From Myxococcota bacterium (GTDB taxonomy: Bacteria; Myxococcota_A; UBA796; CAJQPC01): a stretch of DNA of 64,000 bases. Shown here piece after piece: positions 25,110 through 30,426 of the stretch. Within the stretch, counting starts at the first letter, position 1; each line of letters begins with the position of its first letter. The notes beneath the pieces were generated by a model. It did no database searches. It saw only the letters and a list, made by a program, of their open reading frames with translations, and was not told the DNA's origin. The DNA lies in the NCBI GenBank assembly GCA_036012755.1, contig DASCPX010000127.1:64001-128000 (forward strand), given 5' to 3'. A program made the translations under genes and the position numbers.

Positions 25110-27074
25110 CTACATGTCGTCTTCGGCGAGGACGACCAGGCCGTCTCCGCGGTTCAACGTGACCGGCGTGTCCTTGAACGGAATGAGCTTCACTCCGAAG
25201 TTCTCGCTGGCTTCCGACTCCAACTCGGCGAGCTTGTACCCGAGGCAGATCTCCGTGTCGCGCTTGCGGACAAGCGCCATCAGATCCCCGAAGTTCACCG
25301 TGACCGGGAACTCGTCGAAGTAGAGCCAGGCAGGCTTCACGTAGATCTCCGAGCCGTCTTCCTGGAACAGATCGTCGTAGACGTCCTGGATGTCCGGCTC
25401 CTCGGAGATCTGGGCGAACATCATCGAGACCATGCGGTTGCTGATGATGAAGTCGTTGACCCCAGCGCGGCTGATGAGCTCCTGGTTCGCCGAGTCCAGG
25501 ACCTCGGTGATGAGGTTCGTGGTGACGTCGCGGCCCGCGCTCCTGGCCGCGCGCTGGAGCTTGCGGAGGTGGAGCAGCACGATGATGGTCTCGGAGTCGA
25601 CCCGCTCGGCGTCGATGTCGTCCATCGACTGCTTGAGGATGATGACGGTGTCGTAGGCGAAGGGGTCGACGCTGGCGAGATCCTCGCTGGCCATCGGGTC
25701 CAGTCGCAGCAACTTCGTGCCGACGTTGTCCAACTCGCCGTTGAGATCGTCCAGCGCCTTGGTGACGTGCTCTGGAGGGTCCTTCAGCATGACGTGGACC
25801 TCTGAGCCCTCCAGCACGTAGTCGCTGTACTCGGAGATCAGGATGGAGACCTTGGGCGACCAGCCGAGGATCAGCATGCGCTCCTTGCCCGGCTCGATGC
25901 GCACGTCCTTTCCGACGAGGTCCTTCGGCGAGTAGACCGGGTCCTTCTGGAAGTCGATCGTGGAGTCGTCGTCCGCCACGATCAGGATCTCGTCGCTGTC
26001 GTTCATCTGGTAGTCGGGATCGGTCCGCATCTCGATGGTGCCGTCAGAGGTCCGGATGCCGAGCGGGACGCCGTCAGGGAAGTGGAACTGGAGCGCGCCG
26101 AAGGTGATCCCGCCCCACGCCGCGTTGTGGAAGTACATCTCGCAACCCTCGAAGGAGAGAAGCTCGGCGTAGACGACGGACAGGCCGCTGGTCCGCGAGG
26201 TCTGGACCATGATCTTGGCGAGGATCTCCTGTGCGTCGATGACGCTGATGCGATCCGGGGCGAGGTCCTGGACGACCCGGCGGTTCCGCGGGTCGAAGAC
26301 CTCTGCGACGATGACGATCTCGCTGTCCTCGCCCACGTGGGCGATGAGGGCCAGGACCGTCTTGATGACCTTCGCGTCGCTGGAGAGCTTCTCCTCGGCG
26401 GTCGCGGCCTCACCGCAGGTCGCCAGCACGATGGCGCTCTTGGCGCGCTCGGCGTTGACCTTGCCGAGGTTCAAAAGCGACGCTGTGGGGCCGGAGCGGG
26501 TCACCAGGCGCAGGTTCCGCCGGTCGGTCCAGACGTTCCGGAGGTACTCGTCCATCTCCTCCTTCTCCTCCTCCGAGAGCACGACGGCGACCGGGTCGTC
26601 GTCGCTCTCCTGGGCCTCGACCAGCTCGCGGAGGATCTCGGGGACGCGCGGGCCCCAGCCGACGATGAGCGTGTGGTCGCTCTCGAGGACCCGGGAGTGT
26701 CCCTTCTTCAGCTGGTCGATGGCCTGGTCGAGCGCGGTCGTGAGGAAGGCGATGAGCGCGGAGAAGATGACCACACCGGTCATGCCGGAGATGATCGCGG
26801 TGACCTTGTAGGCGCCGAAGGTGGTGTTGTCCTGGGCCATGTTGCCGGGGTCGGTCAGCTGGAGCCAGGTGAACCACACGCCCTGGGCCAGCTCGTGGGC
26901 CGTGTCGTTGAAGGCGCCGTCGAGGCCCCAGAGGGCAAGGCGCAGCACGACGATGACCAGGAACGAGACGATGAAGGCGACCGTCAGGGCGATGAAGAGC
27001 GCGCGGCTCCCCTTCGCCAGGAAGGTGTCGACCTGGTAGCGGAGCTTCTCGCCCAAGGTGGCTTCGATGGACAT
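25110..27074 (-). CDS. CASTOR/POLLUX(DMI1)-like ion channel with tandem RCK domains
   Basis: LRYQVDTFLAKG, pore WLQLTDPGNMAQD, KKGHSRVLESDHTLIVGW, ELLSFEGCEMYF, DLFQEDGSEIYVKP. Confidence 0.85.
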   Translation of the reverse strand: MSIEATLGEKLRYQVDTFLAKGSRALFIALTVAFIVSFLVIVVLRLALWGLDGAFNDTAHELAQGVWFTWLQLTDPGNMAQDNTTFGAYKVTAIISGMTGVVIFSALIAFLTTALDQAIDQLKKGHSRVLESDHTLIVGWGPRVPEILRELVEAQESDDDPVAVVLSEEEKEEMDEYLRNVWTDRRNLRLVTRSGPTASLLNLGKVNAERAKSAIVLATCGEAATAEEKLSSDAKVIKTVLALIAHVGEDSEIVIVAEVFDPRNRRVVQDLAPDRISVIDAQEILAKIMVQTSRTSGLSVVYAELLSFEGCEMYFHNAAWGGITFGALQFHFPDGVPLGIRTSDGTIEMRTDPDYQMNDSDEILIVADDDSTIDFQKDPVYSPKDLVGKDVRIEPGKERMLILGWSPKVSILISEYSDYVLEGSEVHVMLKDPPEHVTKALDDLNGELDNVGTKLLRLDPMASEDLASVDPFAYDTVIILKQSMDDIDAERVDSETIIVLLHLRKLQRAARSAGRDVTTNLITEVLDSANQELISRAGVNDFIISNRMVSMMFAQISEEPDIQDVYDDLFQEDGSEIYVKPAWLYFDEFPVTVNFGDLMALVRKRDTEICLGYKLAELESEASENFGVKLIPFKDTPVTLNRGDGLVVLAEDDM

Positions 27075-27136: not shown

Positions 27137-27775
27137 TCAGAGCTCAGCGCAGGACTCCGGCTCCCGAGCGCAGCGCTTCATCGAGCCCTGGCAGGACTTC
27201 AGGTTCCTGGGCGAAGGCTGGAGATCCCCCGGGGGATCCTCGCAGCTGCCCTCTCCGAGCCGGTGCAGGGCCACGCCAGCCCAGAACCCGAGCGTGTCCC
27301 CGGCGCTGCTGTCCAGAGCCAGCAGCCGGCCGATGTCCTCTGGCGGCGGGCCCTCGGCGAGCCACCGCTCGGCGGCGTGCCCAGAGCAGTCCGAGGCGTA
27401 GAAGCCCGCGCTGGAGCACAGCTCGATCTGCTGGAACAGGTCGTCTGACGGGCAGAGGTCCAACATGCCGAAGCGACAGGCAGGGCCGCTGCAGAGTGCC
27501 AGCAGATGCTCTATGCCCGCGTCGCAGTGGTCCTCTGCCGCGGCGACCACGCAGGCATCCCGCCAGCGCCCGGCCAGCTCGCAGGTCCGCTCGGCGGCGC
27601 CCATGTCCCCTGCGCTCTCCGCCTGGGAGAAGGCACAGTAGGCGAAGGTCTCCGCGTCGTAGGCGTAGTCCGCGCACTCCGGAAGGGCGGCGACGGCCGT
27701 GGGGTCCGCCGCGGTGACCTCCGGGGTCGACTCCGTGCCACCTGCACAGCCGAGCCCGAGCACCATCAGCGTCAT
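27137..27775 (-). CDS. Cys-rich hypothetical lipoprotein
   Basis: ATGA-coupled start MTLMVLGLGC; repeated Cys pairs. Confidence 0.65.
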   Translation of the reverse strand: MTLMVLGLGCAGGTESTPEVTAADPTAVAALPECADYAYDAETFAYCAFSQAESAGDMGAAERTCELAGRWRDACVVAAAEDHCDAGIEHLLALCSGPACRFGMLDLCPSDDLFQQIELCSSAGFYASDCSGHAAERWLAEGPPPEDIGRLLALDSSAGDTLGFWAGVALHRLGEGSCEDPPGDLQPSPRNLKSCQGSMKRCAREPESCAEL

Positions 27776-28086
27776 CTGTTCAGGTGCGCCGCGTCGATGC
27801 GCTGGATGCACATCCGCCGCGCGTGGCGGTCCAGGACCTCGCAGATCTCCATCCCTCGCTCCCTGGCGATGGCCTGTCCGTGCTCCCGCATCCACCCGTC
27901 GACGGCAGCTCCACGGACCACGGGGTCCTCGATTCCAGCGGTGAGCTCCAGCAACCTCGCTGAGTCCTCTGCGCCCAGGCGCGCGATCTCCCCGGCCCGG
28001 CAGGCGTCCCGCTCCAGCTCCTGCAGCTCCGAGCAGTCGGGCTGCTCCTCTGGGCCGCAAGCGAGTGTCAGGAGCAGTGAGAACAC
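27772..28086 (-). CDS. small Cys-rich hypothetical lipoprotein
   Basis: GTG 28086 gives MFSLLLTLAC; TATCGT -10-like hexamer 7 nt upstream. Confidence 0.6.
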   Translation of the reverse strand: MFSLLLTLACGPEEQPDCSELQELERDACRAGEIARLGAEDSARLLELTAGIEDPVVRGAAVDGWMREHGQAIARERGMEICEVLDRHARRMCIQRIDAAHLNR

Positions 28087-28176
28087 GCCGGAGACGATAC
28101 CGCGGTGGTCGGACACAGGCCTGGATGCGCCCTGGGGGGCTTGCGGTGCCGCCCCGACCGGTGTGGGACTGTGCCC

Positions 28177-28230
28177 ATGAGTCACCTCGTCAGCTGTTGT
28201 TGTTGTCCCACCTCGGCCGAGGTGCGTTGA
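28177..28230 (+). CDS. putative poly-Cys leader peptide MSHLVSCCCCPTSAEVR
   Basis: ATG...TGT TGT TGT TGT...TGA directly upstream of cysH; overlaps hairpin CACCTC-GGCC-GAGGTG. Confidence 0.65.
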   Translation: MSHLVSCCCCPTSAEVR

Positions 28231-28240
28231 CGACTGCTGA

Positions 28241-28930
28241 CTGACGCAGACGACACGCCAACCACAGCTCTGCCGCCCCGGAACCGAGGACGCCCTCGAG
28301 GTCCTCGACTGGGCCACGCGCCGCTTCGCCGGTCGCCTGGTGCTCAGCACGTCCCTGGGACCTCAGAGCATCGTCGTGCTCGACCTGCTCACCCGCCTCG
28401 GGCGCGAGGTCGACACGGTCATGCTCGACACGGGCCTGCTGTTCAACGAGACCTACGCGCTGCGGCAGGAAGTCCAGGAGCGCTTCGGCGGCGAGGTGAA
28501 GCGCGCGACCGGCTGGTCGTTGAGGGAGCAGGAGGCCTCGATGGGCCCGCGGCTGTGGGAGCGCGACCCCGATCGCTGCTGCGCCCTCCGCAAGGTCGCT
28601 CCGCTGCGAGAGCTGCTCGGCGGCTACGAGGCCTGGATCTCCGGCATCCGCCGCGACCAGTCACCCGCCCGCGCCAACGCAGAGGTCGTCGAGTGGGACG
28701 AGAGCTTCGGCCTCGTGAAGATCAACCCGCTGGTGGCCTGGACTCGCGACGAGGTCCAGGCCTACATCCGGCTCCAGGGCCTCCCGGTGAACCCCCTGCT
28801 GTCCCAGGGCTTCGGCAGCGTCGGCTGCTGGCCCTGCACCCACCCGAGCGCCGACGAGCGCGGCGGACGTTGGGTCGGCCGCGCCAAGACCGAGTGCGGC
28901 ATCCATCTCTGCCCGAAGGAGACCACGTGA
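28241..28930 (+). CDS. cysH: APS/PAPS reductase (4Fe-4S APS-reductase type); start uncertain
   Basis: ALEVLDWA, STSLG, LDTGLLFNETY, DPDRCCALRKV, GIRRDQS..R, GCWPCT, ECGIH; frame open back to CTG 28241. Confidence 0.88.
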   Translation: MTQTTRQPQLCRPGTEDALEVLDWATRRFAGRLVLSTSLGPQSIVVLDLLTRLGREVDTVMLDTGLLFNETYALRQEVQERFGGEVKRATGWSLREQEASMGPRLWERDPDRCCALRKVAPLRELLGGYEAWISGIRRDQSPARANAEVVEWDESFGLVKINPLVAWTRDEVQAYIRLQGLPVNPLLSQGFGSVGCWPCTHPSADERGGRWVGRAKTECGIHLCPKETT

Positions 28931-29688
28931 ACCGCTCCCACATCGGAACCCAGCGCCGCATCGCCGGGACGGTCGAGGCCGTCCGCGCCGAGCTCGACAC
29001 CTTCGAGACCGAGATCGCAGCGATCTCGCCAGAGGGACCCCTCCTGGTAGCGATGAAGCTCGACCTGGCGCACGTGCTGGTGGTCGGCGGCGGCGCGGTC
29101 GCCACCCAGCGGGCCCGCTCACTCCTGTACGCCGGCGCCCAGGTGCGGGTGGTCGCTCCGCGGGTGTCGCCAGAGCTTCGCAGGCGCATCGCCTGGGGGG
29201 AGATCGCGTGGTCACAGAGGCGCTTCGAGGACAACGATCTCGACCACATGCAGCTGGTGATGGTGGCCATCGACGACAGGGACGAGAGCCGTCGCGTAGC
29301 CTCGGCGGCCCGGTCGAGGTGCATCGCGGTGAACGTGGCGGATGTGCCCACGTTGTGCGACTTCTACATGCCGGCGAGCCACCGGGAGGGCCCGGTGCAG
29401 GTCGCCGTCTCGACCGGCGGAGTAGGCCCGGCGATCGCCGCGCGGGTCCGCGACCTGGTCGCGGCGGCCTTGCCCCCGGAGCTGGCGGAGGCCACACGGC
29501 GATTCGGCCAACTACGCAAGATCGTTCGCGAGCTCGAGCCATCACGAACCCGTCGCATGGAGCTCCTGGCGAGGATCGGGCGCAAGACGCCCTGGAGCGA
29601 GCTGGCCTGCCTGGAGAGCCGGAGCTCACTCGGAGCGGACGAGGCGCCTGCGGCGGCAGACCAGGAGCACCGCGAGGCCAGCGGCTGA
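28927..29688 (+). CDS. precorrin-2 dehydrogenase/sirohydrochlorin ferrochelatase (SirC/Met8p/CysG N-half)
   Basis: AAGGAG SD, GTGA coupling to cysH; VLVVGGGAVA, VNVADVPTLCDFYMPA, VAVSTGG.GP. Confidence 0.85.
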   Translation: MNRSHIGTQRRIAGTVEAVRAELDTFETEIAAISPEGPLLVAMKLDLAHVLVVGGGAVATQRARSLLYAGAQVRVVAPRVSPELRRRIAWGEIAWSQRRFEDNDLDHMQLVMVAIDDRDESRRVASAARSRCIAVNVADVPTLCDFYMPASHREGPVQVAVSTGGVGPAIAARVRDLVAAALPPELAEATRRFGQLRKIVRELEPSRTRRMELLARIGRKTPWSELACLESRSSLGADEAPAAADQEHREASG

Positions 29689-30426
29689 CAGCGCGCCACC
29701 CGCGGCGGAGTGACAGCCGCAAGCCACGTCGAAGCGCGGCGCGTCGTCGTCAGCATCGCCGAGGAGCTCCGGGAGCACCAGGCAGTCGCCGCCGTAGGTG
29801 GCCTGGACCTCGTGAAAGGGATCGAGGACACGCACGACCGGACAGCTCTGCTCCTTCATCCAGTGCACGTACCAGGTCAGGACGACCTCGCCGCCGAACT
29901 CCGGCATCCCGACCCAGGTCTCGATCTGCTCCCTCTCCACACCCTCGATCAGCCAGCCGTTTCCTGGCGCCTCGGGAGACTCGAGTGTGACCGTGACGAT
30001 GTGCCAGGCCGGCTCACCCTCCTCGGCGCAGAGGTCCGGGTTGAAGTTGGTCGGGCTGATGTCGGTGTTCGTCCAGACGAGGTCACTTGCGAGCTCGCCG
30101 ACCTCTGCGAACTGGAAGACGGTGAAGAGCTCTGTGCCGACGATGTCCGCGCCGTCGTAGACGACGAGGTCGTAGTCGTCGTCGTAGATCTCCTCGGGGA
30201 TCTGGAAGCCGAGCCAGCCCACGGGGTGATCTGTCGCCGGGAGCCGCTCGCTCATCTGGTAGATCCGCTCCGGGTCCTCGACCAGGACCAGCTCGGCGTC
30301 AGGGCTGGACAGGCCCGTCCGGATGCGCACCCAGGAGGTCTTGCGCAGCTCGCCACCAAGGGGGATGAGGTCCTCGACGATGGGGGCCTCGCAGGCGGCC
30401 TGGGCGAGGGAGATCAGGGTCCACAC
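29626..30426 (-). CDS. secreted hypothetical protein with MYXO-CTERM-like tail
   Basis: MWTLISLAQAAC; C-terminal CGC-hydrophobic-RRRR. Confidence 0.7.
   Translation of the reverse strand: MWTLISLAQAACEAPIVEDLIPLGGELRKTSWVRIRTGLSSPDAELVLVEDPERIYQMSERLPATDHPVGWLGFQIPEEIYDDDYDLVVYDGADIVGTELFTVFQFAEVGELASDLVWTNTDISPTNFNPDLCAEEGEPAWHIVTVTLESPEAPGNGWLIEGVEREQIETWVGMPEFGGEVVLTWYVHWMKEQSCPVVRVLDPFHEVQATYGGDCLVLPELLGDADDDAPRFDVACGCHSAAGGALSAAGLAVLLVCRRRRLVRSE

Follow-up and report, generated by a model that had tools for sequence, protein, structure and literature searches.

The DNA analysed here, a stretch of 64,000 nucleotides referred to as the window, contains a short open reading frame with a run of cysteine codons directly ahead of a cysH frame and a siroheme-related gene. 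This arrangement raises the question of whether the short frame senses cysteine on behalf of the genes behind it, by which output, and whether it still does so. The preliminary description had proposed an attenuator of the cysH operon in which a ribosome stalled on the Cys codons frees a buried Shine-Dalgarno (SD)-like motif, GAGGTG. Conservation of the poly-Cys leader in related loci upholds the first half of this proposal; the SD mechanism was not upheld, as GAGGTG is better read as part of an antiterminator strand. In our estimate the element in the window is, with good though not full confidence, a broken cysteine transcription attenuator, and comparison with related loci makes a recent break within a decaying operon the most likely reading.

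The leader was found as initially described, with a start codon at ATG 28177, four TGT codons, a 16-base palindrome CACCTC-GGCC-GAGGTG at 28209-28224 and a second CACCTCG at 28183-28189 (Table 1). The source genome (G000) comprises 6.7 Mb at 68% G+C and contains 21 MYXO-CTERM matches, compared to none in 14 control genomes, from which a myxobacterial (Myxococcota) lineage may be presumed. The TGT run, noted beforehand as unusual, is indeed so: of the 13903 Cys codons counted over 2357 long ORFs of this genome, 1886 (13.6%) are TGT. Short ORFs in which seven residues include at least four Cys lie upstream of only 10 of its 4021 long ORFs (0.25%), and the window leader is one of them. The window leader is more than a chance occurrence. 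In the leaders of relatives the TGT share was 69 of 140 Cys codons (49%, 26 leaders). Folding of 28177-28290 was no better than that of shuffled sequences (z -0.40).

Table 1. Features of the leader region and the genes behind it, in window coordinates.
Feature	Position	Strand	Evidence
Candidate promoter region; also the residual 3' end of a tetR-family gene (gene whole in L121)	28139..28176	+	Block shared with L121 begins here
Leader ORF, 17 codons, MSHLVSCCCCPTSAEVR*	28177..28230	+	Sequence; orthologous L121 leader
Four TGT codons, putative sensor, leader positions 7-10	28195..28206	+	Sequence
Region 1, 5' arm of palindrome; presumed to hold region 2 while the leader is untranslated	28209..28216	+	Identical in L121; 1:2 hairpin in no-ribosome folds
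Region 2, putative antiterminator strand, contains GAGGTG; partner deleted in window	28215..28229	+	Pairing in L121
cysH (APS/PAPS reductase) frame, internally intact; first possible start CTG 28241	28241..28930	+	Family matches; 80% identity to L121
Deletion scar, single CCAACC versus two copies 89 nt apart in L121	28258..28263	+	Comparison with L121
sir (sulfite/nitrite-reductase-family) stub, first 30 codons	28927..29016	+	57% identical to L121 residues 1-30, E 1e-7
SirC, matching the siroheme synthase N-terminal domain; continues the stub in frame	29017..29688	+	Domain match; 51% identical to L228 SirC

An intact counterpart was identified in L121, a metagenome locus known from a single contig and syntenic with the window (Castor-like gene 84%, CysH 80% identical). 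The L121 leader, at 2826-2882, has 18 codons of which five encode Cys and follows the same promoter-like stretch. Between two CCAACC repeats L121 has 89 extra bases that are missing from the window, and this piece carries a GC-rich hairpin (-17.6 kcal/mol), a U-tract, an AGGAG SD and, 5 nt further, the TTG start codon of cysH. The window, which retains one of the two repeats, is left with no intrinsic terminator between leader and cysH, no ATG, GTG or TTG ahead of the conserved N-terminal part of cysH (an in-frame stop lies at 28238) and no SD pairing before CTG 28241 (-0.7 kcal/mol). Loss from the window, rather than insertion in L121, is the simpler assumption: the window has kept an antiterminator strand without partner, and the spacer is present in all 19 modules of relatives in which the cysH start was located, where at least 76 bases separate the leader stop from that start and both an SD-like motif and the start codon follow the leader. 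Judged by its sequence, the window leader is most likely a remnant and not a functioning transcription attenuator. G000 gave no convincing occurrence of the 89 bases elsewhere and no other convincing poly-Cys leader-terminator.

Two other accounts of the junction were considered. A frameshift after TTG 28227 was dropped as the lesion, since L121 shows the true cysH start to lie within the 89 absent bases. An assembly error between leader and cysH was rejected on the agreement of the window with contigs from X8, X9 and X2 and with L120: contigs of the X8 and X9 runs match 27787-28408 without difference or gap, X2 matches the whole stretch and L120 shows 1 mismatch in 6687 bases. X2 and L120 are possibly the source itself, the X8 and X9 contigs are near-equal and maybe of one population, and contigs, on which this check was made, drop rare variants.

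Upstream of the leader, the hexamers TTGCGG (28141) and GGGACT (28165), previously taken to suggest a leaderless transcript, are in place, yet no site in 27700-30000 matched a promoter consensus. Promoter function of 28139..28176 may be supposed from the position of the -35-like TTGCGG, which lies at -36 from the leader start in both the window and L121. At 28164-28165 the window reads TG and L121 reads TA, the TAG in the latter being the stop codon of a tetR-family gene. As the L121 leader begins 10 nt past this stop codon, re-initiation after tetR is also possible there. In 14 of 21 loci a TAnnnT hexamer was observed whose end precedes the start of the first leader by 2-9 nt; the window and L121 are among the seven without it. 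Judged by this spacing, leaderless transcription is plausible for the group of loci. Only the last codons of the tetR-family gene are left in the window, overlapping the candidate promoter; the gene itself (L121 2228-2815) is replaced by two genes without family matches on the minus strand (27137-28100). Further upstream, also on the minus strand, lies the gene for an ion-channel-like protein of 654 residues (25110-27074), which matches Castor/Pollux and RCK and is kept in L121.

Attenuation by leader peptides is a textbook principle. Under it, what the window retains would be the 5' half of a transcription attenuator that is operated by ribosomes and responds to charged tRNA-Cys. In L121, which represents the intact form, a ribosome supplied with plentiful cysteine would reach the leader stop and cover region 2, upon which the terminator would form and transcription would stop before cysH. 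When cysteine is short the ribosome would stall on the Cys run and cover region 1, so that region 2 would be free to capture the 5' arm of the terminator before the 3' arm is made, resulting in read-through into cysH-sir-sirC. The pairings predicted for L121 correspond to the 1:2, 2:3 and 3:4 pairings known from classical transcription attenuators. Without a ribosome the 1:2 hairpin is predicted in both the L121 and the window folds, and in L121 the palindrome then forms instead of the pairing between leader and terminator arm. The strand retained at 28215-28229 in the window was predicted by folding to pair as antiterminator in L121 and 10 further modules.

The energetics of the switch were evaluated by folding. 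Region 2 and the terminator 5' arm of L121 pair with -20.7 kcal/mol, a value reached by 3 of 500 shuffles. On transcripts ending just past the terminator 5' arm, the cost of freeing this arm in L121 was 7.2-14.0 kcal/mol with the ribosome on a Cys codon, 2.6 kcal/mol with the ribosome at the stop and 3.7 kcal/mol with no ribosome. Release was costlier on stalling than at the stop in all 11 terminator modules run (L203, near-identical to L002, was left out), the lower cost at the stop being partly built in as more bases are blocked there. For the duplex between leader and arm, 8 of the 11 modules had no more than 8 shuffles in 500 that matched it, and the other three had 24, 37 and 66 of 500. 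At equilibrium on full-length transcripts, 7 of 10 modules, L121 included, formed the terminator irrespective of where the ribosome was placed, and the switch would therefore have to be kinetic. Pairing was kept in 77% of cases for the antiterminator and 91% for the terminator, compared to 34-56% in slid registers; covariation across the 11 modules was not above shuffles (antiterminator 67/500, terminator 101/500) in an alignment to which L003, L004 and L121 align poorly.

Related loci were surveyed for the same element, as had been suggested at the outset, and Cys-run short ORFs were found ahead of cys genes as expected. The cysH type of the window occurs in 18 of the 154 genomes of the order and in none of the 21 other members of the family. 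A Cys-rich short ORF lies within ~430 bases upstream of 15 of the 17 other cysH loci of the order, with at least four Cys in seven residues in 14 of the 17, and of all four loci from another order of the same class; these genomes are kin and do not constitute independent tests. In other classes none of nine loci had a leader with at least four Cys in seven residues (one has three). Conservation across relatives is limited to the Cys run and to nucleotides involved in pairing downstream, and the leader always stands before cysH or sir. Where sir regions stand apart from these cysH loci, Cys-rich leaders were found in 5 of 7: before sir in L238-L241 and before divergent cysH and sir in L243. The L242 sir region has no leader and that of L244 is incomplete. 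In G092, cysH is without a Cys-rich leader and sir has one.

Three layouts were observed. A leader with a terminator is found in L121, L215, L217 and L218; a leader with hairpins but no U-tract in 8 loci; and both in series in L002, L203, L003, L004, L201, L211, L214 and L216, where the first Cys-rich leader is followed by an intrinsic terminator and the second by a probable hairpin relay ending on the SD. In total, L121 and 11 other loci have an intrinsic terminator between leader and cysH. Modules that have no U-tract share complementary CCGG boxes, found in the leader, the first hairpin and the SD hairpin. In 11 of 15 second modules a stalled ribosome was predicted to lower the cost of opening the SD (range -3.0 to +7.5 kcal/mol) by an 8-base SD measure, which was a second try adopted after a measure over the whole -16..+3 region; by the latter, no consistent switch was seen among the second modules listed. 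On these models the second modules are probably SD relays. Rho-dependent termination on the C-rich spacer is a candidate alternative for the modules without a U-tract.

The search was extended to 158 more distant loci, in a scan that is not fully sensitive and from which several other hits were judged chance; an earlier scan, limited to 80 named loci and filtered on ORF overlap, had been too strict. Candidates for a leader with a terminator were found in L034 (labelled Acidobacteriota), L101 (Chloroflexota; two) and the unlabelled L123, L126, L133, L136 and L137. The antiterminators of L034 and of the two L101 modules were not beyond chance (94, 85 and 277 of 500). The tandem Cys leaders of L101 (5506-5806) have identical terminators and stand before cysH, while L034 (3532-3720) has a single Cys leader-terminator before a cysD-like gene. 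None of seven loci matched an Rfam family at gathering score.

Behind cysH the window departs from its relatives a second time. The gene at 28927 was previously counted among siroheme genes following an APS reductase; the family matches confirm APS/PAPS reductase and the siroheme-synthase N-terminal domain, the latter as part of a fusion between a sir stub and SirC. The junction lies at ~29017-29030 and is bridged by X2 and L120 only, either of which is possibly the source. In L228, SirC is a separate gene after sir, and the gene after cysH in L121 belongs to the sulfite/nitrite-reductase family, with NirA/Sir matches and 172 residues preceding the contig end. No sulfite reductase was found in G000 (NIR_SIR, NIR_SIR_ferr and tblastn; genome 95.95% complete), and elsewhere in the family one is found only in G013 and G017 (2 of 21 other genomes). 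Strong SirC matches are likewise restricted to G000, G013 and G017 among the 22 family genomes, and the fusion is the only one in G000.

The events most consistent with these comparisons are a deletion between two 6-base repeats, which would have taken the terminator, the SD and the cysH start codon, and a second deletion that would have taken nearly all of sir. Both together would leave a leader with nothing to switch and an operon unable to reduce sulfate to sulfide. G000 retains sat, cobA, two cysK-like genes and a second cysH-like gene; cysD was not found, and no Cys-rich leader precedes cobA or either cysK-like gene. The second cysH-like gene (G000:C14:108824-109474) is of a type common in the family, which is mostly without sulfite reductase; it has no Cys leader and directly follows a radical-SAM-like gene. 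The lone cobA (uroporphyrinogen-III methyltransferase, G000:C9:5018-5722) lies away from the operon and is possibly another piece of it.

An operon that is deregulated yet still expressed is the strongest competitor, although we regard it as improbable. With the terminator lost, transcription would be constitutive, and ribosomes coming off the leader or off the 5-codon frame at 28227 would restart at CTG 28241, giving low levels of CysH and of the stub-SirC protein. The CTG lies in the cysH frame and shares bases with the stop codon that ends the 5-codon frame, which in turn overlaps the leader stop. Both the cysH and the stub-SirC frames are open, the catalytic motifs of CysH are kept, and the in-frame fusion is the sole strong SirC match of the genome. 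The overlap of stops is a weak argument as every TGA gives an NTG in the -1 frame, and the CTG has no SD. Low-level CysH and SirC would moreover find no sulfite reductase for their products, and CysH has a possible stand-in in the second cysH-like gene. A need for siroheme in heme synthesis, considered as a use for SirC, received no support: G000 has no AhbAB-type match and a ferrochelatase is present. Selection on cysH argues against a long-dead gene. Between the window and L121 its dN/dS was 0.249, compared to 0.234 for the neighbouring gene, with 19 changes on the window branch and 21 on the L121 branch, and hence no relaxed selection was seen in the window. Either the deletion or deletions are recent, as the reading of a broken attenuator would have it, or cysH is still read from CTG.

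The switch proposed originally would be a functional attenuator of translation, the cysH SD being masked by the palindrome until a stalled ribosome frees GAGGTG; for the window this is very unlikely. GAGGTG can pair with the 16S tail of G000 (-6.8 kcal/mol) and is fully paired without a ribosome, and SD-type output is proven in mycobacteria, according to the part of the source covered (10.1101/834739), and likely in the second modules of the relatives. As an SD in the window, however, it has no cysH start at a usable distance: it sits 2 nt before TTG 28227, which opens the 5-codon frame only, and 16 nt before CTG 28241. Nor would stalling free it, as it stays 85-87% paired in folds with the ribosome on any Cys codon. 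In L121 its counterpart bases are predicted to pair with the terminator arm, and the real SD follows ~100 nt further downstream.

Poly-Cys peptides are able to bind metals. A small metal- or thiol-binding peptide as the product itself, or a TGT run that is a chance repeat ((TGT)4 occurs at 5 places in G000), is nonetheless hardly credible, given that relatives keep just the Cys run and the pairing nucleotides in front of cysH or sir and that the background of such short ORFs is as low as stated above.

A broken transcription attenuator thus remains the preferred reading, and its intact form can be set beside known systems. Like L121, E. coli trpL and Salmonella hisL combine, in a short leader, a run of codons for the amino acid of their own pathway with 1:2, 2:3 and 3:4 pairings and an intrinsic terminator before biosynthetic genes (10.1101/834739, as far as covered); the present group differs in that it would sense cysteine and control sulfate assimilation, its leaders look leaderless or nearly so, and in the window the terminator has been deleted. 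In mycobacteria (Ms5788A and others) a poly-Cys short ORF likewise comes first in cysteine-operon transcripts, at several loci per genome, and Canestrari et al. (10.1101/834739) describe, in the part covered, an output by SD control and not by termination. Compared to these, L121 has a terminator, while the second modules of the tandem relatives resemble the SD output and add a longer hairpin relay. The mycobacterial loci are also treated as translation attenuators in the part of PMC13236596 covered. Cys-codon runs precede actinobacterial cys operons as they do in the window, and for these Seliverstov et al. 2005 (PMC1262725, part covered) report no conserved terminator hairpins and propose Rho-dependent control.

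Cysteine attenuation of the termination type has already been proposed. Brewer et al. 2021 (PMC8632094), in the part covered, predict an intrinsic terminator with the two-Cys uORF uORFC-8-2 before cysS, in Rhodobacterales only, which is the mechanism predicted here for L121. Compared by description, uORFC-8-2 has two tandem Cys at positions 14-15 before cysS, whereas the window leader has four at 7-10 before cysH. Two short ORFs in series within one leader are known from the tandem attenuators of Salmonella mgtCBR (PMC3641672, part covered), where other signals and genes are involved; in the relatives both leaders are Cys runs with apparently different outputs. The parts covered of PMC11109978, PMC2965389 and PMC4833913 contain no cysteine attenuator. 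In the main texts of literature mostly outside subscription journals, we found no paper on such elements in Myxococcota, as the preliminary description had supposed, or on stacked Cys modules.

With about even chances, the leaders of the myxobacterial class make up a cysteine 'ribulon', in which one poly-Cys leader module is combined with exchangeable outputs and stacked in 8 loci, and of which the window would be a switch being lost along with its pathway. The output would be either a terminator/antiterminator or a five-segment hairpin relay ending on the SD. Stacked loci would act as a two-stage gate, reading the same charged-tRNA signal for transcription and then for translation, and separated cysH and sir genes would each have their own copy of the leader.

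For G000 this means that an element resembling a working SD switch is most likely a remnant, and that annotation would report a complete cysH-siroheme operon although the pathway seems to be broken. More broadly, the loci would extend cysteine attenuation to sulfate assimilation in myxobacteria-like lineages, with terminator, SD and stacked forms side by side; in the parts of the earlier work covered, SD control was tested in mycobacteria and a terminator predicted for cysS in Rhodobacterales. To this the locus adds a natural deletion, the lineage and, in its relatives, the stacked layout with two outputs. The natural deletion and the intact L121 form a ready pair for comparison by reporter constructs.

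A further variation of gene order was observed in L033 (6052-9597) and L032 (G039, G059), where a cysteine-synthase-like gene lies between cysH and the sulfite-reductase-family gene. In G039 and G059 the latter carries a C-terminal YedF/TusA-like match.
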